This document shows positions 12,228 through 63,698 of a stretch of DNA of 64,000 nt, one piece after another. Position numbers and translations under genes: made by a program. The first letter of the stretch is position 1, and each line of letters starts with the position of its first letter. Source of the stretch: Candidatus Gottesmanbacteria bacterium GW2011_GWC1_43_10 (GTDB lineage: Bacteria > Patescibacteriota > Microgenomatia > UBA10105). Location: positions 60 to 64,059 of the forward strand of contig LCEX01000001.1 in assembly GCA_000995415.1 (NCBI GenBank), in the 5' to 3' direction. The notes beneath the pieces were generated by a model that saw only the letters and a program-made list of their open reading frames with translations, did no database searches and had not been told where the DNA came from.

Positions 12228-12338
12228 GAGTTATGATATGCTAAAGCTTAGGTTTAGGTAGAAAATAGTAAAGTTCTTACTAAATCCGGTTCTAAGGGCT
12301 CGTTCGTCCGCCCAGAGTGGACGATTACGGCCCTTTGT

Positions 12339-12381
12339 GCCGCATCGTTAAAATGCTTATCACGTTATTGACGGATGCGGC
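12339..12381 (+). promoter_or_regulatory. GC-rich stem-loop in 5' leader/promoter region of GT2 gene at 12404
   Basis: GCCGCATC at 12339-12346 pairs with GATGCGGC at 12374-12381 (8-bp perfect stem, 27-nt loop). A second 6-bp hairpin TCGTCC..GGACGA lies at about 12308-12328. No T-run, so it does not look like an intrinsic terminator. Confidence 0.3.
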
Positions 12382-12403
12382 CTAAACTAGTTTACCTAAG
12401 TTT

Positions 12404-13315
12404 ATGCAAATAAGTCTAGTTATTCCCAATTTTAACGGCCGACACCTGCTAGCCAAAAATTTACCCCACGTCATTAAAGCCTTTTCGGTAGCGGAAATTA
12501 TTGTCGTGGATGATGGTTCAAGCGACGGAAGTGCAAAATTCCTTAAACAAAGTTTCCCAAACGTGAAACTTCTCGAAAAAGCGACCACCAGCGGTTTTTC
12601 TACCAGCGTAAATTTGGGTTTTAAAGCTGCTATAGGCGAAATTGTGGTGCTTTTAAACACCGATGTCGTGCCGAAGGCGGATTTCCTAGGTCCATTACTA
12701 TCTCACTTTGAGGACCCTAATATTTTTGCGGTAGGATGTCTCGAAGAAAGCATTGAAGGCGCGCAAACAACTGCGCGCGGACGGGGAATTGGTCGATTCA
12801 GACGCGGTTTTTTGGAACACCGGCGGGGAGAAGTGGATAAAACCGATACATTGTGGGCTAGTGGTGGAGCCAGTGCCTTTAAGAAAAGTCTTTGGGACAA
12901 ATTGCACGGGTTCAATGAAATTTATGATCCATTCTATTGGGAGGACATTGATGTGTCTTACCGAGCACTCAAGAGTGGATACCAAGTATTGTTCGAATCT
13001 CGCAGTCGTGTCACACACCGACACGAGGAAGGAAGTATCAAGAAACAATATTCTGCCAACGAGGTCAGGACCATCGCCTACCGCAACCAATTTATTTTCG
13101 TGTGGAAAAACATTACTGACTTACAATACTTTAGCCAACATTTATTTTGGTTACCTTATCATTTGTTTTTTGCTTTGATTCGCGGAGATTTAGCGATGTG
13201 GAAAGGTTTTGGGTTAGCTCTTTTAAGATTGCCACGAATTTGGATCAGCCGTGGTTACGAAACTAAACTTTACACTAAAACTGATGCCGAGGTCATACAA
13301 CAATTCACAATTTGA
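12404..13315 (+). CDS. GT2-family glycosyltransferase
   Basis: N-terminal SLVIPNFNGRHLL...IIVVDDGSSDGS. DxD-like region EDIDVSYRA. Confidence 0.8.
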   Translation: MQISLVIPNFNGRHLLAKNLPHVIKAFSVAEIIVVDDGSSDGSAKFLKQSFPNVKLLEKATTSGFSTSVNLGFKAAIGEIVVLLNTDVVPKADFLGPLLSHFEDPNIFAVGCLEESIEGAQTTARGRGIGRFRRGFLEHRRGEVDKTDTLWASGGASAFKKSLWDKLHGFNEIYDPFYWEDIDVSYRALKSGYQVLFESRSRVTHRHEEGSIKKQYSANEVRTIAYRNQFIFVWKNITDLQYFSQHLFWLPYHLFFALIRGDLAMWKGFGLALLRLPRIWISRGYETKLYTKTDAEVIQQFTI

Positions 13316-13331
13316 CTTATTAACTTAAGGA

Positions 13332-14222
13332 ATGAAGAACTTTGTTAAGTCTAAACAGTTTTTAGCAATTTTTTTATTTTCCGCCATAAGTCGACTGCTT
13401 TTTTTGGGAGTAATTCCTCCGGGAGTAAATTCAGCTTTTTGGCTAAGACTGCCGAGTGCAATCGGGGGAATGATTTCTATCATTACCCTGATGTTGGTTT
13501 TATATAAACTTACCGCCAAACCAGTGTTGGCGGAAGTTGCCGGACTGATGCTTGGGTTTATGCCTTGGCACATAGAACAAAGCCGAGTGATATCTCAAGC
13601 TATGTTGGGGATGACTATTTTATTGATCGGAGTATTAGGAGCAGTCACATCTAAATCAAAAATGACGAGATGGACGATCGTTATTCTATGCGGGGTGGGT
13701 TTTTATCTCACGTATCCTTCTATCTGGATGAGGTCCTTGCCAATGATACTTCCGAATTTAGAAAAAGTACTTTCTAACTTATCTAAATTAATTTCGGTTG
13801 AATTTCTTTTTTACAATAATGATTCATTCTGGTGGGGTGGTTTACGGACTATGGGGGCAATGTTACCAACAGTCCTGCCCTTTTATGTTGTCGGGCTATT
13901 AGCGGTCATCCGAAATATACAAGCCAAATACTGGTTTTATTATACCGGTTTTGGAGTGATTTGGTTGATTGCTGCCACAAACCCCCGTTTTCCCGAAGGC
14001 AGGGAGTTTTTTTTAATATCGCCTTATTTAGCTTTTGTTTTAGCTTTAGGAGTAATAAAAGTATTCGAACACATAAAGTCGTCAAAGATGATCTCAAGGG
14101 TTTTTATTTTAATATATTTGATATTCGCAGTTTACGAACAGATTTGGTTTTTGCATATGTATACCACTCATTATGCCCAAAGAGTCAAAAATGAAATACC
14201 GAATTCGCAATTTAGTTTCTAA
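13332..14222 (+). CDS. half-size GT39/ArnT-like paralog lacking the N-terminal DE catalytic loop and the C-terminal domain (possible pseudo-paralog)
   Basis: RLPSAIGGMISIITLMLVLYKL...FMPWHIEQSRV aligns with RLPSAILGTLTVGLVYFLV...ISAWHIAESR of the downstream paralogs. The roughly 55-aa segment carrying YSDE..GYNAYS..KTGRDEYG is absent. 296 aa versus 534-602 aa. Confidence 0.45.
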   Translation: MKNFVKSKQFLAIFLFSAISRLLFLGVIPPGVNSAFWLRLPSAIGGMISIITLMLVLYKLTAKPVLAEVAGLMLGFMPWHIEQSRVISQAMLGMTILLIGVLGAVTSKSKMTRWTIVILCGVGFYLTYPSIWMRSLPMILPNLEKVLSNLSKLISVEFLFYNNDSFWWGGLRTMGAMLPTVLPFYVVGLLAVIRNIQAKYWFYYTGFGVIWLIAATNPRFPEGREFFLISPYLAFVLALGVIKVFEHIKSSKMISRVFILIYLIFAVYEQIWFLHMYTTHYAQRVKNEIPNSQFSF

Positions 14223-15891
14223 CCCGATTCCAGGCTTACTAATTTTAGTTATTCTTTTGGCCGGAGTTTTGCGCGTGTCATTTTTAGACCGGTTTCCGCC
14301 AGCACTTTATTCAGATGAGGTTTCCCAGGGATACAATGCGTACTCCATTTGGAAAACGGGTAGAGATGAATACGGCAAGTTTTTACCGGTATCTTTGCGT
14401 TCTTTTGGGGATTGGAAACCACCGTTGCCCACATATCTGATGATTCCGACGATTGCAATTTTTGGACTGAACGCTTGGGGTGTCAGATTGCCATCGGCAA
14501 TACTGGGAACTTTGACTGTCGGCTTAGTCTATTTTTTAGTTTCCGAGTTATTGCAATTTTTTGAGATGAAAACAACTAGAGATGCTCAAAAAACTGATTT
14601 CAACCGAGGTGTTGCTTTATGGTCTGCTCTGTTCTTAGCAATTTCGGCTTGGCATATTGCAGAAAGTCGTAGTGCTATGTTGGTCGCAGTAGGACTATTT
14701 TGGATATGTATGGCAATATGGAGTTTTCTCAAAGGCCTCAAACAACCAAATTATTGGTATATATCGAGCTTGAGTTTAGTTTTTGGAATTTATACTTATT
14801 ATGGATTGCGATTGGTAGTACCTTTGTTACTTATAGCACTAGCCATCTTTTTCATAAAACCTATTTTACGAAATTGGCAAAAAGCGATCGTTGCAGCTAT
14901 TTTAGGCACAGTTTTATTATTACCTTTAATTGTGGCTTATATCAAAGAACCGGATGTATTGTGGGGTAGAGCCAGAACTGTAAGTATTTTTTATGATCAA
15001 GGAGTGGCTTTAAACGTAAAGGATTTGATAGCTCAAGATGGCATCGGGATGCCGCCAAAACTGGCACAATTTTTTCATAACAAAACTTATGCATATACAG
15101 TCGATATCATACGCCGTTTCTTCCAACATCTGGATGGCAGGTATTTATTTTTGATCGGTGACCAAAGTCCGCCTTTTCAAATCCCAGGAATGGGAATTCT
15201 GTATTTAGGAGATGTCATTCTATTGATCTTTGGTCTAAACTACTTAAGTAAAAACTCACGCTTACTCAAATTTTTGTTGGTTTGGGCAGCAATAACAATT
15301 GTCCCATCGGCATTGACTTTTGTGACACCGGCGTCTAACCGAACTTTCAATTTGGTTGTACCCCTGGTCGTAATTATGGCTTTTGGCGCTGTAAACTTGT
15401 TTGGTCGATTAAACAAATATTTCTTCTGGAGCAGTTTGTTTATAATTTACGGATCGAGTTTCGCCTATTTTAGTTTTAATTATTTTAAAGCACTACCCAA
15501 ACAACATGCTGATTGGTGGCACTACGGTTACCAGGAACTTTATGCCTATCTGGCGACTCAGGAATCACAAGTTGAAACTATTTATATCTCCGGCCATGCG
15601 AGCGTGCCTTATATATTCTTGTTATTTTTTCAAGAAATAGATCCGGCATTAGTTGCGACGCAAATAAAAAGAAATTATAAAGCTGACATATATGGATTTG
15701 AACACGTGGACGAGTTTGGTAAATATCAGTTTCCGCGGTATTTTAAATGGGAAGTAGATAAAGATAATTTAGCAAGTAATTCTTTATTAGTTTTGACTGA
15801 AAGTGAGGTGGCAGGGGAAGGGGCACGGGATATCAAAGACATCATTTACCCGGACGGACGAATTGCCTTCAAAATCTATAAGATTGAATAG
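14191..15891 (+). CDS. ArnT/PMT-like GT-C glycosyltransferase, tandem paralog 1 (ORF opens at 14173; ATG at 14191 preferred)
   Basis: YSDEVSQGYNAYSIWKTGRDEYGKFLPVSLRSFGDWKPP...RLPSAILGTLTVGLVYFLV...ISAWHIAESRS. C-terminal module ...PYIFLLFFQEIDPAL. Multi-TM N-terminal half followed by a soluble C-terminal domain. Confidence 0.8.
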   Translation: MKYRIRNLVSNPIPGLLILVILLAGVLRVSFLDRFPPALYSDEVSQGYNAYSIWKTGRDEYGKFLPVSLRSFGDWKPPLPTYLMIPTIAIFGLNAWGVRLPSAILGTLTVGLVYFLVSELLQFFEMKTTRDAQKTDFNRGVALWSALFLAISAWHIAESRSAMLVAVGLFWICMAIWSFLKGLKQPNYWYISSLSLVFGIYTYYGLRLVVPLLLIALAIFFIKPILRNWQKAIVAAILGTVLLLPLIVAYIKEPDVLWGRARTVSIFYDQGVALNVKDLIAQDGIGMPPKLAQFFHNKTYAYTVDIIRRFFQHLDGRYLFLIGDQSPPFQIPGMGILYLGDVILLIFGLNYLSKNSRLLKFLLVWAAITIVPSALTFVTPASNRTFNLVVPLVVIMAFGAVNLFGRLNKYFFWSSLFIIYGSSFAYFSFNYFKALPKQHADWWHYGYQELYAYLATQESQVETIYISGHASVPYIFLLFFQEIDPALVATQIKRNYKADIYGFEHVDEFGKYQFPRYFKWEVDKDNLASNSLLVLTESEVAGEGARDIKDIIYPDGRIAFKIYKIE

Positions 15892-51610: not shown

Positions 51611-52780
51611 ATGAAAAAGCTCATTCCTTATGCTCGGCAGCAGATTGACGAAACTGATATACAGGCAGTAGTAAGGGTACTAAGATCGGATTTTCTTACC
51701 CAAGGAACTGCTGTTCCCCGCTTCGAAGATGCGGTCAGTCGGTACTGCGGAGTCAAGTACGCAGTGGCATACTCTTCAGGGACAGCTGCCCTTCACGGAG
51801 CTTGTTTTGCTGCCGGGATCAATAAAGACGATGAAGTGATCACGTCTCCTTTGACTTTTGCCGCATCGGCTAATTGTGTTTTATATTGCGGTGGGAAACC
51901 CATACTTGCTGATATTCGCTCTGATTTACCCTTGATTGATGTATCGCAAATTGCCAAAAAAATTACTAAAAAGACCAAAGCTATTATTCCCGTTGATTTT
52001 TCAGGGATTCCGGCTGACTATGACGACATAAATCAATTAGCTAGGAAGCATGGACTGATAGTCATTGCCGACAGTGCTCATTCACTAGGAGCTACCTACA
52101 AAGGAAAAAAAGTCGGAACACTGGCTGATATGACAGTATTTTCATTTCATCCGGTTAAACTTATTACGACAGGCGAAGGGGGGATGGTAGTCACGAACGA
52201 TAGAGATTTTTATGAAAAACTGCTACTTTTCAGGACGCATGGGATCACTAAAGATCCGCAAAAATTATTAAATAAAAATGTTGGACCATGGTATTATGAA
52301 ATGCAGGAGTTGGGTTTTAATTACAGATTGACAGATATTCAGGCAGCATTAGGTATTTCCCAGATGGAGAAAATAGAAATATTTATAGAGCGGCGGACAG
52401 AAATAGCCAGAAAATATATCGCGGCTTTCAAAAACGAAAAACACTTCAAAACTCTTAAATTTCTCAAAGACCGGACTTCAGCTTGGCATTTGTTTCCAGT
52501 CCTTTTAACTCCTCGGTTAGTTGATTACAAAAGGCAAATAGTAGAGGATTTACACAAACGAGGTATATTGGTCCAGATCCACTATATTCCTGTTCATTTA
52601 CATCCGTACTACAGAAACACATTTGGATATACAAATAGAAACTACCCGAAAGCGGAAATGTGGTACCACAGTGAGATATCGTTGCCGCTCTTCCCAGCAC
52701 TTACAAAAGAAGAGATAAAATATATTGTGACCACGGTTCTTGAAGAGATGCAAAAATACACTGTAAAATTACAGACTTAA
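51611..52780 (+). CDS. DegT/DnrJ/EryC1/StrS-family PLP-dependent sugar aminotransferase (PseC/ArnB-like)
   Basis: Conserved over the full length of the family. FSFHPVKLITTGEGGMVVTND carries the catalytic Lys region. N-terminal domain DFLTQGTAVPRFEDAVSRYCGVKYAVAYSSGTAAL. Confidence 0.9.
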   Translation: MKKLIPYARQQIDETDIQAVVRVLRSDFLTQGTAVPRFEDAVSRYCGVKYAVAYSSGTAALHGACFAAGINKDDEVITSPLTFAASANCVLYCGGKPILADIRSDLPLIDVSQIAKKITKKTKAIIPVDFSGIPADYDDINQLARKHGLIVIADSAHSLGATYKGKKVGTLADMTVFSFHPVKLITTGEGGMVVTNDRDFYEKLLLFRTHGITKDPQKLLNKNVGPWYYEMQELGFNYRLTDIQAALGISQMEKIEIFIERRTEIARKYIAAFKNEKHFKTLKFLKDRTSAWHLFPVLLTPRLVDYKRQIVEDLHKRGILVQIHYIPVHLHPYYRNTFGYTNRNYPKAEMWYHSEISLPLFPALTKEEIKYIVTTVLEEMQKYTVKLQT

Positions 52781-53821
52781 CAGAAATTTTCGAAACTCCG
52801 CATTAGCTTGAGAATCAGACATTTGTTTGGGAGGAGCTTTCATCAAAAATGAACAAACTTTCCAGGTGTCTTTTTGTTTTCCACGATTAACCAGCAATTT
52901 GGCTATGCGTATCGCATCCACCACAACTCCGGCACCATTGATGCTGATTTCATCTTCAATAACAGAGATAATAGATATAGGAACCCGTCCGAATATTTCC
53001 CCTTCTATTTTGATGTTGACCAACTTGTGCCCGGAAGGTTTACCGGTATAGAAAAATTTTACTGACGGCTCCGCATCTCCTTTTTCCAAAAAGTGTGTTA
53101 ATGCTTCACGTTTTGATTTTTCTTTTGATTTGGCTCGATACAATAAATTGAAGTGATCGGCATTTCCACCACGATTTTCCTGTTCAGATTTTGACACATT
53201 AATCCCGCGCATTTTCAGCAACTCTAATAAAAAACGATTAAGCATAGTTGCACCCAACTGACTTTTGATATCATCCCCTAATAGGACTAGCCCGTTATTT
53301 GTAAACTTCTTTCTCCATTCGGGTATGGTTGCTAGCGGGGTGGGGATACAGTTAATAAAACTGCAGTGTGCTTCAAGCGCCGCTTCTGCATATACATATG
53401 TTGCTTGTTCACCGCCAGATGGGACAAAGTTTACGACAATATCTGCCTTAGATTTTTTGAGAATATTTACAATATCGACCACTGGCGCATTACTTTCATG
53501 TACAAATGATTTTCTCATTTGATCTATGATGCCATCCAGAGTCGGGCCCCGGTGTACTACAGCATCATATTTGAGGGGATCGCATATTTTTAAAGTAACA
53601 TTCGGTTTTGCAGAAATTGCTTCATGAAGTTTTTTATTGACTTTTCGTTCATCCACATCAAAGGCGGCGACGAAGTTGATATCTTGTATCCGGTAGTTTC
53701 CGATTTTAGGATTTATCAGACCTCTGTTCTCTTTTGGATGTTTTGTATAGAATGCAACTCCCTCTACAAGTGCTTTGGTAAAGCTGCCAACACCAATAAT
53801 TGCGACATTGATCTTATTCAC
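52769..53821 (-). CDS. myo-inositol-1-phosphate synthase family (Ino1-like, NAD-dependent) enzyme
   Basis: [22 protein letters not shown] matches [34 protein letters not shown] matches [19 protein letters not shown], and [28 protein letters not shown] matches [28 protein letters not shown], all in the same order as in mycobacterial/archaeal-type MIPS. Confidence 0.75.
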   Translation of the reverse strand: [350 protein letters not shown]

Positions 53822-53879
53822 TAAGTTAAGTTAATCGTTTGATTACACAGGCACCATGTATTCTTGAGTCAATGCGATT

Positions 53880-53888
53880 TGATATAAT
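53880..53888 (+). promoter_or_regulatory. extended -10 promoter element TGATATAAT upstream of the PEP-utilizing gene (with AGGGA RBS at about 53907)
   Basis: TGaTATAAT at 53880-53888, 27 nt upstream of ATG 53916. AAGGGA 5-10 nt upstream of the start. An identical TGATATAAT occurs upstream of 60773. Confidence 0.4.
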
Positions 53889-53915
53889 TGTAGCACAATT
53901 TTGAAAGGGAAATAA

Positions 53916-55220
53916 ATGCACTTAATTAATTATGGTTGCCGGGAGGATGTAGCCGGAAAATTAAGAACAATCAAGTTACTAAAACAAATAAATCAAATCT
54001 TGCCTGGTGAAATCATAGTTCTTAAATTGTCCGGGGATTTATTGATCCCAGTTTTGCAAGCAATTGATAGGGGAGCAGTTGCCTTTATTGCAGATTGCGG
54101 AAAAACAAATCACGGAGTGATCGCTGCCAAAGAACTAGGCTTGCCTTTCTATATCGGTAACCAAAATGATTTGAGAAATGGCTATTATTACTCACTGTTA
54201 GAAAATCAAATTCATCCGGGTAAAATGCCCATAAAAACAAGTAAAAACGCAAACAGAAGATTAGCACCTGCTACTAATAAGAATTTATTTATTAATCTGG
54301 GTTTTCCTAAGCGGGTTTTAAAACACAACCCTCAACTATTTTCTGCAGTTGATGGAGTGGGGTTTGCACGTCTCGAATTTTGCATCGCAGAAATCATCGG
54401 TCGATTGCATCCGGTAGAATACCTGCGACGTTTTGGCGAAGAAAAATTGCTGATAGAAATATACAAAGAGTTTGCAAAGGTGGCTGATAAATTTAGCGGC
54501 AAACGCTTTTGGATCAGAACTGACGATTTCTCCCCTGCACAACTAGTCCAACTTGAAGCCGGAAAAAAATATGAGTCACACATAGGTAATGAACTGGTTA
54601 GTTTTAGAGGCATAAGTCGATCGATACATCCCGACTGGCAAAACTTGGGCAATCTGGAAAAGAAGTTAACCGGAGTAAGCTGGATAGGCATTCAATTTAA
54701 AGCTTTGAACATATTAGCCAGAGATTTTCCCAAAGTAAAATTTGGAGTGTTTGCTCCGATGGTACATGATGTTTCTGAATATAAAGTTTGGCGGAAGATA
54801 GCGGATAAATTTATTAAGCAGCCGATTGATTATGGAGTAATGGTGGAAGTTCCAGCATTGACAGGAAAAGGAATTACGCCGTTTATTAAAAGTAAACTTA
54901 TTGATTTCATGATTTTTGGGACAAACGACTTAACGGCGTTGACTTTGGGTATAGATAGATCTGACAACCGATTAGCATACTTATTTAACGAAGAAAATCC
55001 GGTAGTTCTAAATTCCCTTTATGAAACCATCGCTATTTGTAAAAAGGCAAAAGTACTTACTGCAATTGGTGGAGCAGCAGCTTCAAGGCCAAGTCTGATA
55101 AAAAAATTATTCACAGCCGGGATAGATATTTTTTCGGTGAATCCAGATCGGGAAACTATTAACCAAACTCGGCAATTTATTTATAAATTAGAACGAGGTA
55201 AAAAAAATGCAAAAAATTAA
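53916..55220 (+). CDS. PEP-utilizing enzyme: phosphohistidine mobile domain plus PEP/pyruvate-binding TIM barrel (PEP synthase/PPDK C-terminal half), lacking ATP-grasp domain
   Basis: N-terminal swivel domain ...[31 protein letters not shown], and [21 protein letters not shown] matching the PPDK/PEPS signature [29 protein letters not shown] corresponds to the GLCRTEHMF region. Confidence 0.7.
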   Translation: [434 protein letters not shown]

Positions 55221-56226
55221 AATATTAATTACCGGAGCCAGTGGTGACTTGGGAAGGGTGATGGTTCTATACTTATCCACGTTTAAGAAGTTTGAAATAT
55301 ATGCGGCAGATAGTCAGATTGACTTATTGGCTGCAGCCCCATCTAGTAAAAGATATCTTTTGCCCAAAGCAGATACTCTGGAATATATACAGGAATTGAA
55401 CCAACTCCTAGAGAAAAATCATATAGACATATTATGGTTGGGATCTGACTTGGAAATTAGACGTGTGACACAGGACAAAGATAACATCTCCGCTAAATTT
55501 TGGTACCCACCTCATAAAGCGATTGTTACAATGCAAAATAAATTTTTATGTAATCAGCTTTGGCAAAGTAAAAATGTGGCGGTTCCTAATTCGATTGTTA
55601 TAAAGGAACCGTCCCAGCTTAAGCCAGATGTTTGGTTAAGACCTGTGGATCATATCGGTGGCGGAGGTAAGCTGGCTGTGCACGCTGTCACAAAAATTCA
55701 AGCCAAACAGTGGTTAGATCAACACCATGGATGGGGAAAATTCACCATGAGTGAATTTTTGCCTGGTGTCATGTTTGGTTTTGATTCTCTATGGAAAAAC
55801 GGAAAATTGTTAAGTTTTTCTATCAAAGAAAGAGTGCGTTATTCCAGAGACTCCTCAATCAGTTTTACAACGAGTGTGGTAAAAACCTCAAGCAATCAAC
55901 AGGCGATAAAGATGGCAATTAAAGCAATTAAAACTATCCTACCCCACCCAGATGGCGTTTTTTCTGTGGATTTACGTGAAAACAGTCAGGGGATTCCTTG
56001 CGTAACCGAAATCAATCCAGGCAGGTTTCTTACCACCTCTATTCTGTTATTTAAAGAACTAAGTTATGATCTGCCATTAGATTATCTCAATTTGATTTTA
56101 GGGAAAAAGATACCAGTAAGAAAACAAATAAGAGAAAATCAGTACCTATTCTTTGTTAAAGGCTTAATTAGAGTAGTTGATGAAAAAGATATGTTGGTAG
56201 AGAATGCCCGGAGATACTGGAAATAA
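55207..56226 (+). CDS. ATP-grasp domain protein (pre-ATP-grasp Rossmann-like N-terminus plus ATP-grasp core)
   Basis: WLRPVDHIGGGGKLAV (Gly-rich loop). SEFLPGVMFGFDSLWKNGKLL, and GVFSVDLRENSQGIPCVTEINPGR (E-x-N metal-binding end). 14-nt overlap with the PEP-utilizing gene. Confidence 0.65.
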   Translation: MQKIKILITGASGDLGRVMVLYLSTFKKFEIYAADSQIDLLAAAPSSKRYLLPKADTLEYIQELNQLLEKNHIDILWLGSDLEIRRVTQDKDNISAKFWYPPHKAIVTMQNKFLCNQLWQSKNVAVPNSIVIKEPSQLKPDVWLRPVDHIGGGGKLAVHAVTKIQAKQWLDQHHGWGKFTMSEFLPGVMFGFDSLWKNGKLLSFSIKERVRYSRDSSISFTTSVVKTSSNQQAIKMAIKAIKTILPHPDGVFSVDLRENSQGIPCVTEINPGRFLTTSILLFKELSYDLPLDYLNLILGKKIPVRKQIRENQYLFFVKGLIRVVDEKDMLVENARRYWK

Positions 56227-56227
56227 C

Positions 56228-56935
56228 ATGAAATATGCGTTAATTAGTGATATTCATGCTAATCCCCTAGCCTTAGAGTTAGTGCTTCGAGATATTACTC
56301 TGCATGATATAGACAAGTTACTCATCGCCGGAGATTTCGTGGGTTATTATTATCGCCCTGATGTTTGTTTCGAACTACTTGAGGAATGGAACTGGATAGG
56401 CGTACAGGGCAATCACGACCAAACATTACAAGATTTTGTGAGCGGCAATTCAGTTATGATGCAAATTTACCGTGAGGAATATGGAAGTGGTTTAGATGAG
56501 GCGGTAAAAAGACTTACCTTAAATCAAAGAAAGTTGCTTTCGTCACTTCCGGAAAAGAGGGAACTGTTGATTGATGAGCAAAAAGTTTTGTTGTGTCATG
56601 GTTCACCCTGGTCGATCAATGAACGCATCTATCCTGATGCCAAACTAGAAGTATTTACGCGCATATCCAGTTTAGAGTATGACTGGGTTATTTTGGGACA
56701 TACACATTATCCGTTGGTTCAAGAAACAAATCAAACGTTGATTGTCAATCCTGGATCTGTCGGACAACCGCGCGATATTGGAGGTCTGGCGAGTTGGATG
56801 GTGGTTGATTTTGGTAAGCGTACCTGCCAGTTAAAACGAGTTAAATTTCCTACCCAAAAACTGATTCGGGAAACAAAACTCTTGGATCCAAAAGTCCCAT
56901 ATTTAGCTGAGGTTTTGATGCGTAAACCAAGATAA
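56228..56935 (+). CDS. calcineurin-like metallophosphoesterase (YfcE/MJ0936-like)
   Basis: MKYALISDIHAN, LLIAGDFVGY, GNHD, CHGSP, ILGHTH form the classic metallophosphoesterase motif series D-x-H ... GD ... GNH[DE] ... H ... GH-x-H. Confidence 0.8.
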   Translation: MKYALISDIHANPLALELVLRDITLHDIDKLLIAGDFVGYYYRPDVCFELLEEWNWIGVQGNHDQTLQDFVSGNSVMMQIYREEYGSGLDEAVKRLTLNQRKLLSSLPEKRELLIDEQKVLLCHGSPWSINERIYPDAKLEVFTRISSLEYDWVILGHTHYPLVQETNQTLIVNPGSVGQPRDIGGLASWMVVDFGKRTCQLKRVKFPTQKLIRETKLLDPKVPYLAEVLMRKPR

Positions 56936-56936
56936 G

Positions 56937-58004
56937 TTATTTTTTGGCTATGAATTTCCAAGATAGTGGCGTGCCGGAGGCTATATTTTGAGTTGCCGTG
57001 GCTCCGATAATCTTCTGATAGAACCTTGGGGGTAAACCGTTTGCAGGTCTGATAGAGCGTACATTATCCCATGTAAATTTTTCGCCAACCTTAACAGGCC
57101 GGATGACGAACAGCGATCTTCGCCATCCATATTCGCGCATTTGCGCCTCTCCTTTTTTAACGCCATATTTTACTTTTCCCATGGCCTGTTCGGTGATTCG
57201 GATCGACTTGACCATTTGAGCAAATTCACTTGGTACTAATGAAAAACCTGCATCGACCGCCCCTTTTTTTCTTGAAAGAGTCAGATGTTTTTCGATGATT
57301 GACGCTCCCAATGCGACCCCTGCCACCGGTATTTCCCATCCCAGAGTATGATCTGAGATCCCCACAGGAACACCAAATGTTTGGAGCAAATGAGGGACGG
57401 TTTTTAGATGCATCTCTTCAGGCGGAGCCGGATATGCACTGGTGCATTTAAGCAAAGCTATTTCGCGCGCGCCGGATTTGCGAGCCGCATTCACTGCTTC
57501 CCTGATTTCGGAGAGAGTAGCCATCCCAGTTGAAATAATTAGCGGTTTGCCGGTATGGGCCATTTTTTGGATCAAAGGTATATCCACCAATTCAAATGAA
57601 GCTATCTTGTGTACAGGTGGATTAACCTCTTTTTCTAAGTAGTCGACTGCAGTTTGATCAAAAGCAGTCGAAAAAAAATCCAGGCCCAACTTAGTAGCTA
57701 ATTTTTTGAGTTTGAGGGCCCAATCCCATGGAGTATAAGCTTTTTGGTAGAGGGAGTATAGGTAATTCCCTGACCATAGGGATCCGGGGTCGGAGATTTT
57801 AAACAGCGGACTTCTGACATTAAGAGTCATCGTATCGGCGGTATAAGTTTGGAGTTTGACTGCATCAGCGCCGGCAGTTTTAGCTGCTCTGACAATTTCT
57901 TCTGCCTCTGAATAGTCCTGTTTATGATTACCGGACATTTCGGCAATGATATAAGTAGGATGATCCCGGCCTATCTTTTTACCGCCAATTGCAAAACTTT
58001 TCAT
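56937..58004 (-). CDS. N-acylneuraminate/pseudaminate/legionaminate synthase family (NeuB/PseI/LegI-like), PEP-dependent, with C-terminal SAF domain
   Basis: FAIGGKKIGRDHPTYIIAEMSGNHKQDYSEAEEIVRAAKTAGADAVKLQTY matches the NeuB N-terminal signature. C-terminal RSLFVIRPVKVGEKFTWDNVRSIRPANG is the SAF/antifreeze-like domain. Confidence 0.9.
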   Translation of the reverse strand: MKSFAIGGKKIGRDHPTYIIAEMSGNHKQDYSEAEEIVRAAKTAGADAVKLQTYTADTMTLNVRSPLFKISDPGSLWSGNYLYSLYQKAYTPWDWALKLKKLATKLGLDFFSTAFDQTAVDYLEKEVNPPVHKIASFELVDIPLIQKMAHTGKPLIISTGMATLSEIREAVNAARKSGAREIALLKCTSAYPAPPEEMHLKTVPHLLQTFGVPVGISDHTLGWEIPVAGVALGASIIEKHLTLSRKKGAVDAGFSLVPSEFAQMVKSIRITEQAMGKVKYGVKKGEAQMREYGWRRSLFVIRPVKVGEKFTWDNVRSIRPANGLPPRFYQKIIGATATQNIASGTPLSWKFIAKK

Positions 58005-58038: not shown

Positions 58039-58710
58039 TCAATCTTTGATATTTCTCACAACTTGAAACGCTTCTGCATTTTGAAATCCCACCTCCATAC
58101 CTCTATAGTGAGCGAGCGTTTTGATGCCTTCAGCAGATCGGGGATGGGGAAAAGAGCGAAGTTCATCTTTATAAATTTTCATTAACTTTACTTTTTTTTC
58201 TATATATTGAGAGATATTTATGTATTCTGTTGGAGAAAACATAGTTTGGGGTGATTTGTGTTGCCATTCAGTTGAAGATAGGACTTCAAAAGAAACAATT
58301 TTTTTTACAAAAAATCCAGGTTGGGGTCGGCAGGCAGTCAGTACTGCCTGAAAAGTGAGACGATGATCAATATTTAAATCAGAGGCAAAATGTGTATAAA
58401 CGAGATTGGGTTTGATTTTAAAAATAGTGCGTTCGACAACTTTAGTAATCGTAAGTAATGGCAGTGAATCAAATTTGTTATCGGGAAGTTTTTCAAGAAT
58501 AAGTTCCTTGGCGCCTATTTTTTTTGCCACCTGTTGAGCTTGTTTGGCACGTTTTTGAATACTACCTTGATCATCTCTGGCTGATTCGCCATCTCCTAAA
58601 ATCAGGATGTATAAGAAATCTCTGTCAGCCACATGTTTGAGCATTATTCCCCCGGCGCCTAGAACCTCATCGTCTGGGTGAGCCGCAACAACCATGACTT
58701 TATTTTTCAT
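58039..58710 (-). CDS. PIG-L/LmbE-family N-deacetylase (start at MKNKVMVVAAHPDDE, ATG 58710; ORF opens at 58815)
   Basis: VMVVAAHPDDEVLGAGG is the LmbE/PIG-L zinc-binding signature. ILILGDGES follows. Confidence 0.8.
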   Translation of the reverse strand: MKNKVMVVAAHPDDEVLGAGGIMLKHVADRDFLYILILGDGESARDDQGSIQKRAKQAQQVAKKIGAKELILEKLPDNKFDSLPLLTITKVVERTIFKIKPNLVYTHFASDLNIDHRLTFQAVLTACRPQPGFFVKKIVSFEVLSSTEWQHKSPQTMFSPTEYINISQYIEKKVKLMKIYKDELRSFPHPRSAEGIKTLAHYRGMEVGFQNAEAFQVVRNIKD

Positions 58711-59392
58711 AAACTTCCACTTGGGCGGCCAGCTTATTTTTTCGCAAACGCGCTTTGGAAAATTCGAACCGTAATCCTTTGGTCTGCAAAAAAGCTTTTG
58801 GATATTCAGGCGCATCTAGCATGCGGATAAAATCATAAGCATCAGAAATTGTTTTAACCGGTTCGAGATTACTTTCTTCTGGTAGCCGTCTCTTAAAAAG
58901 AGTAATTTTTCCTGTTTGTGGAGTAGGAGTTGGTTCATTTTTTATAATGTGCGGGATCATGTCTGAAAAAACAATTTGTGAAAGTCGGGCGTAGATTTGT
59001 TCGGCACTACCTTTGAGTGATACTGGTCGTTTAAGATAAATATTTCCTGTGTCCATGCCGTCGCTAACTCGTATTGCCGAAATTTTGGTATTCTTAAAAC
59101 CCCGAATAATTAAATTTTGGAGCGGACTCCCACCTCGGCCAAACGGCAAGTCCGTCATATGAAAAACCACACATTCAAAATTGCGCCAAATCTCTTCCGA
59201 AATGATCCAAGACCAATGAGGGAAAAAAATGTAACGGGGGTGGAGCCGTCTGAGGTGTTCCACCGTCATTTCAGATTTATTTTGAATGAGATGATAGTTC
59301 TTTTTGGCACTAAAATATTTATGGAAGTTAGCAATATTCCAAGGCCTGATAGTAGCGATGATATATGTTTTAGACACCATAGTTTTTCCCAA
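58700..59392 (-). CDS. formyltransferase-domain protein (sugar N-formyltransferase, Fmt/ArnA-N-like)
   Basis: FFPHWSWIIS...FHMTDLPFGRGGSPL matches the formyl_trans_N H-x-S-x-LP-x-x-RG-x-x-P motif. 230 aa with no C-terminal Met-tRNA binding domain. Confidence 0.65.
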   Translation of the reverse strand: MGKTMVSKTYIIATIRPWNIANFHKYFSAKKNYHLIQNKSEMTVEHLRRLHPRYIFFPHWSWIISEEIWRNFECVVFHMTDLPFGRGGSPLQNLIIRGFKNTKISAIRVSDGMDTGNIYLKRPVSLKGSAEQIYARLSQIVFSDMIPHIIKNEPTPTPQTGKITLFKRRLPEESNLEPVKTISDAYDFIRMLDAPEYPKAFLQTKGLRFEFSKARLRKNKLAAQVEVYEK

Positions 59393-59396
59393 ATTG

Positions 59397-60029
59397 TTAT
59401 TTTTTTAATAACCACCAATGGCAGTCATCGAATCCGGCAGAGGCATCCAAAAAACCATGTTTAAGAAGGGTAAGACGGGGATATAACGCCAACCATTCTT
59501 TATCAAACGGACGTTTAAATAAGGCGTCAGTCAATCCGCGGTAGGGGATAACCGTTTTTTCCTGAGCGAAGTATTCGATAGTAAGAATGTACTTTCGGGA
59601 AGCAGTATGGATACGGCGTAGCGCTTGAGCCAAATTGGCGTCTCCGATATGGATGAGTACGCCGATAGTAAATACTAGATCAAAGGCGTTTTTCCACGTA
59701 CTATCAAAAATACTTTTTTCAAAAATACGGGCGCTGGGGACCAGTTTTCGAGCAGTGGCAACAGCTATTTTGTTAGGTTCTAGACCCATGAGTTTGAAAT
59801 CAGGATTAATTTTGTGTAATACATCGAGGTTCCCGCCAATATTACAACCCACCTCCAGAATAGACTTAATATCGGGAAAATCGCGAAATACAGATTTAAA
59901 AAAAGCAGCTCTTTTCCTAAAACGTGAAAGGTCAGAGTTACGTTTAATGTATTCGTTACCAAACGTTCCTTGCCAGTAAGCAAGTTGTTTTGTTTTATTG
60001 ACCATAGTGCTTTTGCTGAACATCAGCAT
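59397..60029 (-). CDS. class I SAM methyltransferase resembling the pseudaminic-acid-biosynthesis-associated methylase family (TIGR03587-like)
   Basis: QLAYWQGTFGNEYIKRN is the N-terminal hallmark of that family as I recall it. ILEVGCNIGGNL is SAM motif I. About 200 aa. Confidence 0.6.
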   Translation of the reverse strand: MLMFSKSTMVNKTKQLAYWQGTFGNEYIKRNSDLSRFRKRAAFFKSVFRDFPDIKSILEVGCNIGGNLDVLHKINPDFKLMGLEPNKIAVATARKLVPSARIFEKSIFDSTWKNAFDLVFTIGVLIHIGDANLAQALRRIHTASRKYILTIEYFAQEKTVIPYRGLTDALFKRPFDKEWLALYPRLTLLKHGFLDASAGFDDCHWWLLKK

Positions 60030-60717
60030 TAAGTTTTGCTATTTTAGGGTGTTTTTCCAACAGCTCAATAATCTCCAAACTGTTTTTTTTATGAGCCTGG
60101 TATTTCTGGATAAGTGTTTTGACTGCCAAAAAATCTTCTTGAGTATCTACTGTAATTCTATATGCAGATTCGTCTTTTGGTTGTGTCAGTTGTTTGATTA
60201 TAAATCGATCGGGATGGTTTCGCCAAATGTAGGGTGTGACATGTTCGCGTTCTAGTAGTTCTGTAGCTTTTTGAAAAGCCTCGGTCAGAGCCGCAAAGGT
60301 AAAGATTTCAAAATCGAACCCCCGGGGATAAGTGCGTTTGACCGTATTGGAAAGATAATCGCAACCAGATTTTTGAAACATCCTCAAACCTTTTGCGATC
60401 AAATCCCCGTCTATCAGAGGGCAGTCGGACGTGATCCTAATTATCGTTGTTAAGTCAAAGGCCTGTGCGCAGTAATAGAACCTGGCCAAAACGTCGTTTA
60501 AATCTCCCCTGAAAACTGGCACTGAAATGGTTTGACAAAGTTGAACGATCGCATCATCTTTACGATCAATGGAGGTGGCTACGATTATAGGTATTTTTGA
60601 CTCTTGGGCTCTTTTTAAATGATATTCCAGAAGGGTTTGATTATTAATTTTGGCTAACACTTTACCGGGTAAACGGATAGAGGACATCCGAGCTTGGGTA
60701 ATAATAGCTGTTTTCAT
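59995..60717 (-). CDS. acylneuraminate cytidylyltransferase family (CMP-nonulosonic acid synthetase; PseF/SpsF/NeuA-like)
   Basis: AIITQARMSSIRLPGKVL matches the SpsF/PseF A-I-I-Q-A-R-M-G-S-T-R-L-P-G-K motif. About 240 aa. Confidence 0.8.
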   Translation of the reverse strand: MKTAIITQARMSSIRLPGKVLAKINNQTLLEYHLKRAQESKIPIIVATSIDRKDDAIVQLCQTISVPVFRGDLNDVLARFYYCAQAFDLTTIIRITSDCPLIDGDLIAKGLRMFQKSGCDYLSNTVKRTYPRGFDFEIFTFAALTEAFQKATELLEREHVTPYIWRNHPDRFIIKQLTQPKDESAYRITVDTQEDFLAVKTLIQKYQAHKKNSLEIIELLEKHPKIAKLNADVQQKHYGQ

Positions 60718-60772: not shown

Positions 60773-62680
60773 ATGGGTAAGAAAAATCGTACAATAATCA
60801 TCTTCGCGTTTACGCAAAAACAGGCAGAATGGGGAGTTGATTACCGCCAAAAACATACTAGTGACCAAACTATCATTTTAGCTCCGACGATTGAGGCTAC
60901 TCTCACGCTCCAAAAATACCAGCAGCAGGCATTTGAGTATTTTAATTTATTGTCACAAAATAGTCCGTTACATTACCCGCAAGTTCTCTTGCCTTATTCC
61001 GAGAAAAGCCAGGAATTAGTGAAGTATTTTAACAAACACGTGGAACAGATCGAGGTGTGCGGTATCAATTTCATCGAGATTTTTGACTATTTACTCTGGG
61101 GAGAGTTTTTAGATGTTTTTTTGGCATATGCGCTCTTCAATGAAATTGAAAAGAAGTGGCACCCGGATGCATTTATCGGATTTAAAGACGCGGCTGATGT
61201 TTCGCTAGCCAGTTGGTCGCCTCGACAATTTTCTTACGCCGCTCTGATTTGTGCTTTTTTTGCCCCACCCGAAAAGGTAAAATGGCAGGAAATTTTAGAT
61301 CCCTCCCACCAATCGAGGATTTTTGATTACACGTTTTATCTACCAACGTTGTTTCGGACAGTTTTAGAAATGGGTGGCGGATGGATTCTAAAAAAATATT
61401 CAAATTTGAAAAATCGCTTATTCAAAATAAAACCACACGAAGTTGACTTTCTCTTGTTCTCCGGCGGATTTAACTTGTATTATAACAAGTCGTTGTTTGA
61501 GCACCTTTTATCAAACCGTAAGTATCTTGTAACTACCGGGGATCATCTTTTGGAACACGAATGGTTACTTAAAACTCAAAGTTTTCACTACACTCCACTA
61601 GCACATTTCTTGACAAGGCAATTATCTGACCAAGTCGATAAAACGCACCAGCAAATTTCCAAAAAAATCGATTCAATTCTCACCCAAACAGAAGTCACCC
61701 AATTACTTTTTCCCAGCTCGCTTCCCGAGGTCTGCAAGCAAGCGTGTTTGGCAAAGTTACGGTTGGTGTTTCGCCAATACACGCTAAAATTTGTCCGCCA
61801 AACTATATTAGCCCAAGAAGTCATCCGCAGCTCTCGACCCAAACTGGTAATTACCACACACGATCCAGGACCCTCTGCATTGCCGTTTGTGTTTTTGGCC
61901 AAGCGCAAACACATACCCACGTTAGTCTTATTACATGGATTTCACGACGTGCATTTTGGAGCCGATCACAAGAGTGACTACATGGCTTTGTGGGGGAAAT
62001 TAGTCCAAAATAGATTTGAAAAAATACTTCATAAACCCCGTAAGACTCTTTTTACTGTGGGTTTTCCCCATTTGGATGAGATTTTTCAAAAAAAGCAGGC
62101 TTTTTGGCAACGAAATCTTGGGCAATTTAAACCACGAAACCCAGTCAAAATAGGATTTCTGTGCACATTATATCCGCCCAATACTTTTATTCTGACAAAA
62201 TACTTTCATGAGGTGATGGAAAAGTTTAAGCAGTTACCATTTCCCATAGAAGTATGGATTCGAACTCATTCCGGGCAAATTGTGCATGAGCTTAGGAGTT
62301 TGGGAGATCATTACGGGGTGAAAACGATGATAAATCCAAAGACGACTTTAAACGAATTCTTGGAATCAACAGATGTGATTGTGTCTTGGGATACGACAGC
62401 CATTTTGTGGCCAATGCTATTTGGCAAACCTTTGTTTTACATGAGTCCTTGGTGGGCGGAAGCCAATATCCCAGCAAACAAATATCAGGCGGCATGGACA
62501 GTAAAAAACGCTGCAGAGTTGGTAAAAGGACTTGATTATTTGGTACATCATCCAGAAGCTGTAACCAAACTTCATCCAGGTCAACGCCAATTTTTAAACG
62601 ACGCATTGGGAGTGATTGATGGAACTTCTGGAGAAAAACTAGCAAATCTGATTGAGCATTTACTGACGAGTTCTGCTTGA
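60773..62680 (+). CDS. large soluble protein of unknown family; candidate GT-B-like nonulosonate transferase or PseG-type hydrolase fusion
   Basis: 635 aa, no TM helices. C-terminal VIVSWDTTAILWPMLFGKPLFYMSP resembles a GT-B C-terminal donor-binding segment. It sits between the CMP-sugar synthetase and PseB genes. Confidence 0.4.
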   Translation: MGKKNRTIIIFAFTQKQAEWGVDYRQKHTSDQTIILAPTIEATLTLQKYQQQAFEYFNLLSQNSPLHYPQVLLPYSEKSQELVKYFNKHVEQIEVCGINFIEIFDYLLWGEFLDVFLAYALFNEIEKKWHPDAFIGFKDAADVSLASWSPRQFSYAALICAFFAPPEKVKWQEILDPSHQSRIFDYTFYLPTLFRTVLEMGGGWILKKYSNLKNRLFKIKPHEVDFLLFSGGFNLYYNKSLFEHLLSNRKYLVTTGDHLLEHEWLLKTQSFHYTPLAHFLTRQLSDQVDKTHQQISKKIDSILTQTEVTQLLFPSSLPEVCKQACLAKLRLVFRQYTLKFVRQTILAQEVIRSSRPKLVITTHDPGPSALPFVFLAKRKHIPTLVLLHGFHDVHFGADHKSDYMALWGKLVQNRFEKILHKPRKTLFTVGFPHLDEIFQKKQAFWQRNLGQFKPRNPVKIGFLCTLYPPNTFILTKYFHEVMEKFKQLPFPIEVWIRTHSGQIVHELRSLGDHYGVKTMINPKTTLNEFLESTDVIVSWDTTAILWPMLFGKPLFYMSPWWAEANIPANKYQAAWTVKNAAELVKGLDYLVHHPEAVTKLHPGQRQFLNDALGVIDGTSGEKLANLIEHLLTSSA

Positions 62681-62711: not shown

Positions 62712-63698
62712 ATGTTTGATTGGAGTAAACAAGTGATACTTTTGACCGGTGGTACCGGTTCTTTTGGTCAGGCTTTCACTCAATACCTTCTGAAATATCA
62801 TTCTCCCACAGCCCTTAGAATATTTAGCCGAGACGAATTTAAACAGTACGAGATGCAACAGAGATTTCAGCATCCATGTTTACGTTTTTTCATTGGTGAT
62901 GTGCGTGACCCAGAACGGCTAGCTCGAGCTATGGATGGCGTGACGTTGGTGGTTCATGCGGCTGCACTCAAGCAAATTGTCGCTTGCGAATACAACCCAA
63001 ATGAAGCAATCAAAACAAACATCATTGGGACGATGAACGTTTTGAATGCGGCGCTGGATGCTCAAGTTGAACGGGTGTTGGGATTGATCACCGACAAAGC
63101 AGTCAGCCCAATCAATTTATATGGAGCCACAAAGCTATGTATGGAAAAATTGCTGATCCAGGGAAATTCGTATCATGGAAAACACCGAACAGCGATCAGT
63201 TGTGTCAGATACGGAAATGTGGCTAATAGCCGTGGAAGTGTAGTGCCGCTTTTTAGGAAACAGAAAGAAACTGGGACATTGACAATTACTCACAAAGACA
63301 TGACACGTTTTTGGATCACTCTTGAAGAAGGGGTCAAATTCGTGGTTCGGACCATCGAAACCATGCAAGGGGGAGAAGTATTTGTACCCAAAATGTCTAG
63401 TTTCAAAATCATGGATCTAGCTCGGGCAATTGCCCCAGAAGCCAAACACAGATTTGTGGGTATACGTCCTGGAGAAAAACTGCATGAAGATTTGATTAAC
63501 CATCACGAAGCCATAAACGTGGTTGAGTTGGCCGACCATTTTATCATCAAGCCCGGAAACGTTTTTTGGACAAAAGATAAAAGACTAACAGCTTTTGACG
63601 GAAAAACAGTAGTTGCCGATTTCTCATACAATAGTAAAACTAACCCTCATTATTTATCAATACTGGACTTACAAAAAAGTTTAGAGAAACTCTTTTAA
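62712..63698 (+). CDS. pseB: UDP-GlcNAc 4,6-dehydratase, inverting (PseB/FlaA1/CapD-like); first enzyme of pseudaminic/legionaminic-type pathways
   Basis: VILLTGGTGSFGQAF...RIFSRDEFKQYEMQ...FFIGDVRD...HAAALKQIVACEYNPNEAIKTNIIGTMNVLNAA...TDKAVSPINLYGATK...YGNVANSRGSVVPLF...MTRFWITLEE aligns block by block with H. pylori/C. jejuni PseB. Confidence 0.9.
   Translation: MFDWSKQVILLTGGTGSFGQAFTQYLLKYHSPTALRIFSRDEFKQYEMQQRFQHPCLRFFIGDVRDPERLARAMDGVTLVVHAAALKQIVACEYNPNEAIKTNIIGTMNVLNAALDAQVERVLGLITDKAVSPINLYGATKLCMEKLLIQGNSYHGKHRTAISCVRYGNVANSRGSVVPLFRKQKETGTLTITHKDMTRFWITLEEGVKFVVRTIETMQGGEVFVPKMSSFKIMDLARAIAPEAKHRFVGIRPGEKLHEDLINHHEAINVVELADHFIIKPGNVFWTKDKRLTAFDGKTVVADFSYNSKTNPHYLSILDLQKSLEKLF

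Follow-up and report, generated by a model that had tools for sequence, protein, structure and literature searches.

The pseudaminic acid (Pse) locus of Candidatus Gottesmanbacteria bacterium GW2011_GWC1_43_10 lies within a 64-kb stretch of contig LCEX01000001.1 (hereafter the window, to which all gene positions refer), and it raises the question of what two overlapping genes are doing there, one encoding a 434-aa protein of the phosphoenolpyruvate (PEP)-utiliser family (53916-55220, + strand) and the other a 339-aa ATP-grasp protein (55207-56226, + strand). The original prediction read the pair as a split and permuted PEP synthase that regenerates PEP for a NeuB/PseI-type synthase encoded nearby, with an amide ligase unrelated to the PEP-type protein as the fallback. 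The analysis reported here favours a different answer: with a probability of about 0.75, the genes belong to a glycan-decoration cassette with an amide ligase, and do not encode a PEP synthase.

The domain content originally proposed for the 434-aa protein, a swivel His domain and a PEP/pyruvate barrel with the FGTNDLT signature, was recovered by Pfam, NCBIfam, alignments to Protein Data Bank (PDB) structures and an AlphaFold (AF2) model. The PEP-utilizers_C model (PF02896) matches residues 109-424 (E=2.9e-35), and residues 12-428 align to positions 368-791 of the 798 positions of the NCBIfam PpsA model, a span which comprises the central His domain and the C-terminal barrel and leaves the N-terminal nucleotide-binding part outside. 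The scores against TIGR01418 and NF005057, 174.5 and 186 bits, are below the respective cut-offs of 739.75 and 598. The absence of a nucleotide-binding domain, also part of the prediction, is confirmed both by the start of this alignment and by the Pfam scan, in which neither the 434-aa protein nor the ATP-grasp protein matched PPDK_N (PF01326). Of the other profiles proposed as a check, PF02896 and ATP-grasp_3 were matched, while the mobile-domain model PF00391 alone remained below threshold (E=0.25). Despite this weak match the swivel domain is real, because the AF2 model, for which 24 family sequences were used (pLDDT 92.8), superposes with both domains on phospho-EI, 2hwg (TM 0.69, 435 columns), and also on PPDK. 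The modelled conformation is phospho-EI-like, with the His domain docked on the barrel.

The swivel phosphohistidine domain extends over approximately residues 1-105 and the PEP/pyruvate-type TIM barrel over approximately residues 109-424, with FGTNDLT at residues 334-340 (54915-54935). In pairwise PDB alignments a segment of 17 residues aligns with GGRTSHAAIVSRELGIP of solved PpsA structures, so that TNHG faces the catalytic TSH/TCH of these enzymes; His66 (54111-54113) is therefore the swivel histidine. The protein aligns to PpsA of 8a8e with E=3e-37, and the T-x-H, RxEF, RTxD, EvP, NDLT and DR motifs are kept. An alignment of 65 family members with PpsA and EI sequences revealed that His66 is invariant (65/65), as had been expected of the histidine in the TNHG region, and that R152, E154, R201, D204, R231, E311, N337 and D338, which correspond to Mg2+, phosphate and carboxylate ligands in EI and PPDK, are invariant as well.

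One catalytic residue is missing. Where PpsA has 'tsiCGqag', the 434-aa protein has 'taiGGaaa' in the PDB alignments, with Gly385 (55068-55070) at the position of the catalytic Cys of PpsA, PPDK and EI, and glycine occupies this position in 63 of the 65 family members. This Cys adds a proton to, or takes one from, C3 of the pyruvate enolate, and neither PPDK nor EI (in which it is Cys502) can do without it. Its clade-wide loss therefore argues against pyruvate/PEP interconversion. In an exhaustive profile search of 1.84 billion representatives, the glycine marked exactly the top-scoring group, about 15 representatives at 50% identity with one HAD fusion among them, while the next-best matches, PpsA-like proteins and some other short His+barrel proteins, keep the Cys. 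These comparisons place the 434-aa protein in a small clade of the PpsA/PPDK/EI superfamily whose members consist of the swivel His domain and the barrel alone. It shares both domains with PpsA, PPDK and EI by homology and differs from them in lacking PPDK_N or the HPr-binding domain, in the Cys-to-Gly replacement, and in being found in a glycan-decoration context rather than in central metabolism. The Cys-less family occurs in about nine species genomes of 185,579, and its carriers include Saccharibacteria, Parcubacteria, Chisholmbacteria and Curtissbacteria of the Candidate Phyla Radiation (CPR), a Pelagibacteraceae single-amplified genome, a gammaproteobacterial metagenome-assembled genome (MAG), Geothermarchaeales and the haloarchaeon Haloglomus; the closest relatives of the window cassette genes are found in CPR lineages. 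In the databases its members are named no more specifically than 'putative PEP-binding protein' or 'pyruvate, water dikinase', and no description of the family or of the cassette was found in the literature searched (8 million full texts). Four other His+barrel proteins of about 420 aa (P0174, P0179, P0202 and P0234) keep the catalytic Cys and match PF00391 strongly; these may be genuine split PEP-synthase subunits, distinct from the Cys-less family.

The second gene encodes a stand-alone ATP-grasp protein and overlaps the first by 14 nt, both as predicted. The protein, with a pre-ATP-grasp and an ATP-grasp domain, matches ATP-grasp_3 (25.2 bits against a cut-off of 23.2), ATP-grasp_4, PylC-like_N and 'carbamoyl-phosphate-synthase-like' NCBIfam models. 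The GGGGK loop and the ExN Mg motif TEINPGR are present, and K112, the Gly loop (G151/G153), D255, E268-x-N270 and R273 are conserved in its family, which is small (38 matches among 5.8 billion clusters). A sequence search against the PDB returned only a marginal match, 2pn1. With the AlphaFold model (pLDDT 92.9), the best Foldseek matches were 2pn1, RizA, PurK, PurD, biotin carboxylase, YwfE and PylC; the top 50 were almost all ATP-grasp ligases and carboxylases, and no chain of PPDK, PpsA or rifampin-phosphotransferase (RPH) was among them. On its motifs and predicted fold, the window protein is thus a carboxylate-amine ligase with intact catalytic motifs. It resembles PylC, the L-amino-acid ligases RizA and YwfE, PurK and PurD in fold, in the pre-ATP-grasp N-domain and in the Mg/ATP motifs, but is only 12-18% identical to them and represents a distinct small family that is restricted to glycan loci, usually with a phosphatase gene after it. 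Since the ATP-grasp is not homologous to PPDK_N, the gene order is no permutation of PpsA, and the Cys-to-Gly replacement also speaks against a split PEP synthase.

The third gene of the cassette, which did not figure in the original prediction any more than Gly385 or the divergent Ino1-type synthase gene described below, encodes a YfcE-type metallophosphoesterase with intact DIHAN, GDxxG, GNHD and GHTH motifs (56204-56935, + strand). It overlaps the ATP-grasp gene, although with Met9 as the start it would begin 2 nt after it, and it ends 1 nt before the convergent PseI gene. The cassette (53916-56935) thus consists of three overlapping genes, all on the + strand. A scan of 53600-57200 for promoters and terminators found sites no more numerous than in shuffled sequences.

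To compare gene neighbourhoods, homologues of the window genes and recurrent neighbours were mapped in 59 loci from public contigs (numbered here with the prefix L), which collapse to 38 distinct family loci. The homologous gene pair was found in 12 distinct loci, in CPR bacteria, archaea and a gammaproteobacterial MAG. The pairing of the PEP-type gene with an ATP-grasp gene is far beyond chance, and the adjacency is conserved across loci, often with overlap, in agreement with the functional coupling assumed for the two genes. Two observations had been named beforehand as telling against the split synthase, namely no co-occurrence of the two genes elsewhere and loss of the catalytic His or Cys; the genes do co-occur in other genomes, and of the two residues the His is kept and the Cys is lacking. 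For the fallback this means that an amide ligase decorating a nonulosonic acid (NulO) is the better fit, but that the ligase is not unrelated to the PEP-type protein.

The comparison also bears on the link to NeuB. Distinct loci with flanks of 1.2 kb or more on each side numbered 21, and in 20 of these an ATP-dependent amide-forming enzyme is encoded within 3.5 kb; the sole exception combines an NTP_transferase gene, the PEP-type gene and a CDP-alcohol phosphotransferase gene. Over all 38 family loci an ATP-grasp was present in 12 and an AsnB-like glutamine amidotransferase in 15, and the ATP-grasp partners fall in at least two separate ATP-grasp_3 subfamilies. The PseI gene of the window does lie about 1.7 kb from the gene pair, as had been stated, and is identified by its match to TIGR03586. 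A NeuB/PseI homologue was, however, located within 10 kb in only 4 of the 9 loci with long flanks. The expected conservation of the pair was thus observed, but its constant neighbour is the amide-forming enzyme, ATP-grasp or AsnB-like, and not NeuB. Together with the missing Cys, the ligase type of the ATP-grasp and the energetics discussed below, this speaks against a PEP-regenerating unit for PseI. The cassette was also found in a WbpA/B/E/I-like diamino-uronic-acid locus where NeuB is not adjacent.

The order PEP-type gene, ATP-grasp gene, phosphatase gene is found in the window and in L001/L003, L004, L013, L014 and L048. The phosphatase belongs to the HAD family in L001/L003, L013 and L014, and to Metallophos in the window, L004 and L048, which represents a non-orthologous swap. 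Typing of the HAD phosphatases gave only generic PGP/PpaX-like HAD-IA matches, below the cut-off. Natural HAD-His-TIM fusions of about 600 aa also occur (L017:9281-11104, L016:2995-4818 and protein P0161), and in these the HAD sits where PpsA and PPDK have the nucleotide-binding domain. Relatives of the window ATP-grasp (about 30% identity) accompanied by a HAD phosphatase, without a PEP-type gene, are encoded in the amino-sugar loci L023, L024, L025 and L027; in L023, L025 and L027 a DegT aminotransferase gene is beside the ATP-grasp gene or one gene off, and L025 contains FdtA and DegT and shows no acetyltransferase. The occurrence of ATP-grasp + HAD pairs after DegT in amino-sugar loci, without the PEP-type gene, indicates that a ligase working with a phosphatase on sugar amines makes up the core of the system. 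To this core the Cys-less His/barrel protein is often added, in tight coupling.

A more specific model can be proposed for the three genes, to which we would give slightly less than even odds: the cassette would attach a small phosphorylated 2-oxy acid to an amine of the Pse pathway and then dephosphorylate the product. The barrel protein would handle a PEP-like 2-(phospho)oxy-carboxylic acid, such as PEP, 2-phosphoglycerate or a phospholactate-like compound, by phosphohistidine chemistry, and thereby supply or process the acid. The free amine, on a Pse precursor or on Pse itself, would come from PseC or be exposed by the PIG-L protein. The ATP-grasp enzyme would convert the carboxylate of the acid to an acyl phosphate and then form the amide bond with the sugar amine, and the phosphatase, here the metallophosphoesterase, would strip the phosphate 'handle'. 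The expected product is a Pse of N-(2-hydroxyacyl) type, e.g. glyceroyl- or lactyl-like. Full conservation of the PEP site in the barrel protein suggests an acid similar to PEP, 2-phosphoglycerate or phospholactate, and the loss of the Cys suggests either that no enolate protonation is needed, as for a hydroxy acid, or that more space is required at C3. Since the cassette is also present in the WbpA/B/E/I-like locus without an adjacent NeuB, the acid would be a portable building block rather than a NulO-specific one. We infer the acid, the acceptor amine and the phosphoryl source of His66, the first of these being a guess from the conservation of the active site.

The logic of the model has a biochemically demonstrated precedent in Campylobacter jejuni, where the C-terminal domain of Cj1438 uses ATP to couple glucuronate to (S)-serinol phosphate or ethanolamine phosphate, after which the phosphate is cleaved off by the HAD phosphatase Cj1435 (PMC11800397). 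Both systems appear to combine an ATP-dependent amide ligase with a phosphatase in a surface-glycan locus, and by analogy the window cassette may likewise ligate a phosphorylated block and then dephosphorylate it. They differ in that the carboxylate comes from the sugar in C. jejuni, whereas in the window cassette the sugar most likely provides the amine, and in that Campylobacter has no partner of the PEP-utiliser type. An ATP-grasp protein, SfmE, has been implicated in a NulO flagellin-glycan operon of Shewanella (PMC3765264). Although N-glyceroyl Pse has been described as a structure, no genes are known for it, and the glyceroyl group of Pse5Am7Gra in Tannerella has been called a 'major challenge' (PMC5378307).

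Several points weigh against this proposal. Four of the 12 ATP-grasp loci have no phosphatase gene nearby, namely the haloarchaeal L006 and L015, L010 and the truncated L055, and the neighbour-joining tree of the ATP-grasps is weakly resolved. If the acid is no more than a common intermediate of glycolysis, it is hard to see why a phosphohistidine enzyme should be devoted to it; without the Cys, PEP itself may be turned over poorly, and the model names no second phosphotransfer station for His66. Alternatively, the ATP-grasp could join an amine-phosphate through an amide bond to the carboxylate of the sugar itself (C1 of Pse or C6 of a uronate), in the manner of the Cj1438 C-terminal domain. 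Finally, the cassette model offers no explanation for the Ino1-like gene that is a conserved neighbour both in the window and in L004.

Of the competing explanations, the one that survives best, although we consider it unlikely, is that the 434-aa protein is an EI-like PEP-dependent phosphotransferase, which would autophosphorylate from PEP and donate the phosphate to some acceptor, such as a hydroxy acid or a sugar. The transfer could be of the ping-pong type within the barrel site or take place on a partner, and the product would then be the substrate of the ligase and the phosphatase. Invariance of His66 and of all PEP, Mg and phosphate ligands agrees with this, as does the likeness of the AF2 model to phospho-EI, and phosphotransfer between two substrates in one site is carried out by HpeH alone (PMC12167813). 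Moreover, in a distant clade the PEP-type protein is found fused to, or encoded next to, NTP_transferase, APS-kinase-like and CDP-alcohol phosphotransferase proteins, implying a nucleotide-activated phosphorylated product. However, without a Cys to protonate the enolate the PEP half-reaction should be severely impaired, an acceptor-binding domain is absent, and a phosphate that is added and then removed would be wasteful.

Considerably less probable is a two-component small-molecule dikinase or kinase, in which the ATP-grasp would phosphorylate His66 and the swivel would pass the phosphate to a pyruvate-like or hydroxy acid in the barrel; the originally proposed supply of PEP for PseI is one version of this scheme. 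It would account for the tight, overlapping adjacency of the genes and for the conservation of their pairing across phyla. No other ATP-binding partner is encoded nearby: a search for PPDK_N-like open reading frames came back empty for the window and for every family locus, and it did pick up its positive control in outgroup loci. The HAD-His-TIM fusions place another domain at the N-terminal 'second station' position, and split dikinases are known, HpeHI and phenylphosphate synthase among them (PMC12167813). These two, together with VadK of Mycobacterium tuberculosis and the Cj1418 glutamine kinase of C. jejuni, are split or truncated dikinase relatives that keep the swivel His (PMC12167813, PMC13400623); they also keep the PPDK_N/RPH-type ATP-grasp and have lost or replaced the barrel, whereas the 434-aa protein is the opposite half. 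VadK, for example, consists of an ATP-grasp and a His domain without a barrel (PMC13400623), and Cj1418, HpeHI and RPH are similar. The window ATP-grasp is of the ligase type rather than of the PPDK_N/RPH type, the partner slot is also filled by a second ATP-grasp_3 subfamily and by AsnB-like enzymes, and relatives of the ATP-grasp occur without the PEP-type gene. Fusions of the Cys-less protein to an ATP-grasp were not found among the top 150 representatives, in which only HAD and NTP_transferase fusions were seen. For the PEP version in particular, the Cys required for pyruvate/PEP chemistry is absent and the linkage to NeuB is partial. A ligase-type ATP-grasp converts ATP to ADP and Pi, which is thermodynamically insufficient to drive the formation of PEP from pyruvate.

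The least probable alternative is a pseudo-glycoside pathway similar to that of mycothiol or bacillithiol, in which a cyclitol phosphate made by Ino1 would be glycosylated by a GT4 enzyme, dephosphorylated, de-N-acetylated by PIG-L and ligated by the ATP-grasp with the PEP-type protein as an accessory: the genes for Ino1, PIG-L (best NCBIfam match BshB1), a phosphatase, an ATP-dependent ligase and a GT4-like enzyme all lie within 8 kb, and the Ino1, PIG-L and Metallophos set recurs in L004, but Ino1 is present in only 2 and PIG-L in only 4 of the 38 family loci, the PIG-L gene sits in a tightly packed operon with those for PseI, the formyltransferase, the methylase and the cytidylyltransferase, and the cassette occurs in many loci without Ino1.

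Two narrower proposals were also rejected. A role of the HAD protein as a phosphohistidine phosphatase or as the 'second station' for the swivel is unlikely, given that pairs of ATP-grasp and HAD exist without the PEP-type protein. A NulO-specific substrate, such as an open-chain 2-keto-3-deoxy acid in the barrel, is unlikely because the cassette also occurs in the WbpABEI-type uronic-acid locus.

The cassette is surrounded by the genes of a Pse pathway. PseB, an inverting UDP-GlcNAc 4,6-dehydratase (62712-63698, + strand), PseC, the aminotransferase (51611-52780, + strand), and PseI, the Pse synthase (56937-58004, - strand), all score above the cut-offs of their models (TIGR03589, 466.8 against 407.75; TIGR03588, 502.1 against 423.5; TIGR03586, 448.7 against 340.25). 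The PseI gene is convergent with the cassette and is followed on the same strand by genes for a PIG-L family de-N-acetylase (58039-58815), a formyltransferase-like protein (58700-59392), a Pse-biosynthesis-associated methylase (59397-60029, above the cut-off of TIGR03587) and a CTP_transf_3 cytidylyltransferase (59995-60717), a PseF-like candidate for the CMP-NulO synthetase that matches PseF weakly (E=0.005). The PIG-L and formyltransferase-like genes (58039-59392, - strand) overlap by about 115 nt. Profile scans of the Pse locus detected neither a GNAT-type PseH nor PseG. The presence of the formyltransferase-like and PIG-L genes in the PseI operon, where no canonical PseH was detected, suggests a predicted non-canonical Pse variant carrying e.g. 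an N-formyl and another N-acyl group. PIG-L recurs in the Pse-type loci L004 and L014 and is a candidate for freeing the amine that is acylated by the ligase.

On the other side, the Ino1-type cyclitol-phosphate synthase gene (52769-53821, - strand) is divergent from the cassette, with a spacer of 94 bp. The encoded protein, which is short, matches Ino1 of M. tuberculosis (1gr0, E=7e-73) and the five-membered-cyclitol-phosphate synthase 6k96 (E=4e-43). Among the genes shared with the Saccharibacteria Pse locus L004 this one is the best conserved, the two copies being 72% identical.

Elsewhere in the window, a 635-aa protein without a Pfam domain (60773-62680, + strand) weakly matches a BFO_1060-family glycosyltransferase model with its C-terminus (E=1e-8). 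Its homologues are encoded alongside Pse genes in L014 and L017, and it is possibly a nonulosonate transferase. Nearly all of the window is a single, very large surface-glycan region, which at positions 1-45000 encodes, mostly on the + strand, GT2, YfhO, several PMT_2-type membrane glycosyltransferases, a beta-propeller protein, a NAGPA phosphodiester glycosidase and GT4 enzymes. Taken with the CPR relatives of the cassette genes, this would suit an origin in CPR/Patescibacteria.

Variants of the cassette are found in other lineages. In the haloarchaeal loci L006 (9980-14557) and L015 (9968-14194), the Cys-less PEP-type protein is encoded together with a P-loop-kinase-like protein, an Amidohydro_2 protein and an ATP-grasp_3 of the second subfamily, without an adjacent phosphatase gene; L015 is from Haloglomus halophilum ZY41, an isolate whose genome is complete and which may prove tractable as a host. 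A Parcubacteria locus (L011:9232-12103) has the order NTP_transferase, Cys-less PEP-type protein and CDP-alcohol phosphotransferase, as do L032 and L033, an arrangement which resembles IPCT/DIPPS-type logic for a phosphodiester-linked head group.

In a distant clade of the Cys-less family, a conserved quartet encodes the PEP-type protein, an AsnB-like amidotransferase, an NTP_transferase and an APS-kinase-like protein in Pelagibacteraceae and marine metagenomes (L007, at 10001-14441, L012, L031, L034, L035, L037, L041, L042, L044, L046, L049, L050 and L052), and P0012 is a fusion of the NTP_transferase with the PEP-type protein. The quartet parallels, enzyme type by enzyme type, Cj1418/1417/1416/1415 of the O-methyl phosphoramidate (MeOPN) pathway of C. 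jejuni, which leads to CDP-phosphoramidate 3'-phosphate. By analogy, the quartet could make a nucleotide-activated phospho-acid amide, e.g. of glyceramide-2-phosphate, a compound known from Providencia O22. A tentative and rather speculative extension is that the Cys-less His/TIM proteins constitute a new class of phosphohistidine-dependent 2-hydroxy-acid kinases or PEP:hydroxy-acid phosphotransferases, from which two parallel surface-glycan routes would start. In CPR bacteria and archaea, an amide route with an ATP-grasp ligase and a phosphatase would lead to N-hydroxyacyl amino sugars such as N-glyceroyl-Pse, and in Pelagibacteraceae and other marine microbes, a phosphodiester route with AsnB-like, NTP transferase and APS-kinase-like enzymes would lead to a nucleotide-activated phospho-acid amide.

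The retention of the phosphohistidine and of an intact PEP site in a PEP-utiliser clade that has dispensed with the Cys and the nucleotide domain points to a new substrate or phosphotransfer partner in a textbook superfamily. The marine cassette with AsnB-like, NTP transferase and APS-kinase-like proteins suggests a wider chemistry of phospho-acid decorations, so far without description. The N-acyl decorations (glyceroyl, lactyl and others) of pseudaminic and legionaminic acids and of other amino sugars shape antigenicity and recognition by phages or hosts, and the genes responsible for them are mostly not known. A portable three-gene cassette with testable enzymology would open a way to these decorations, notably in uncultivated CPR bacteria and archaea, the surface chemistry of which is almost unexplored.

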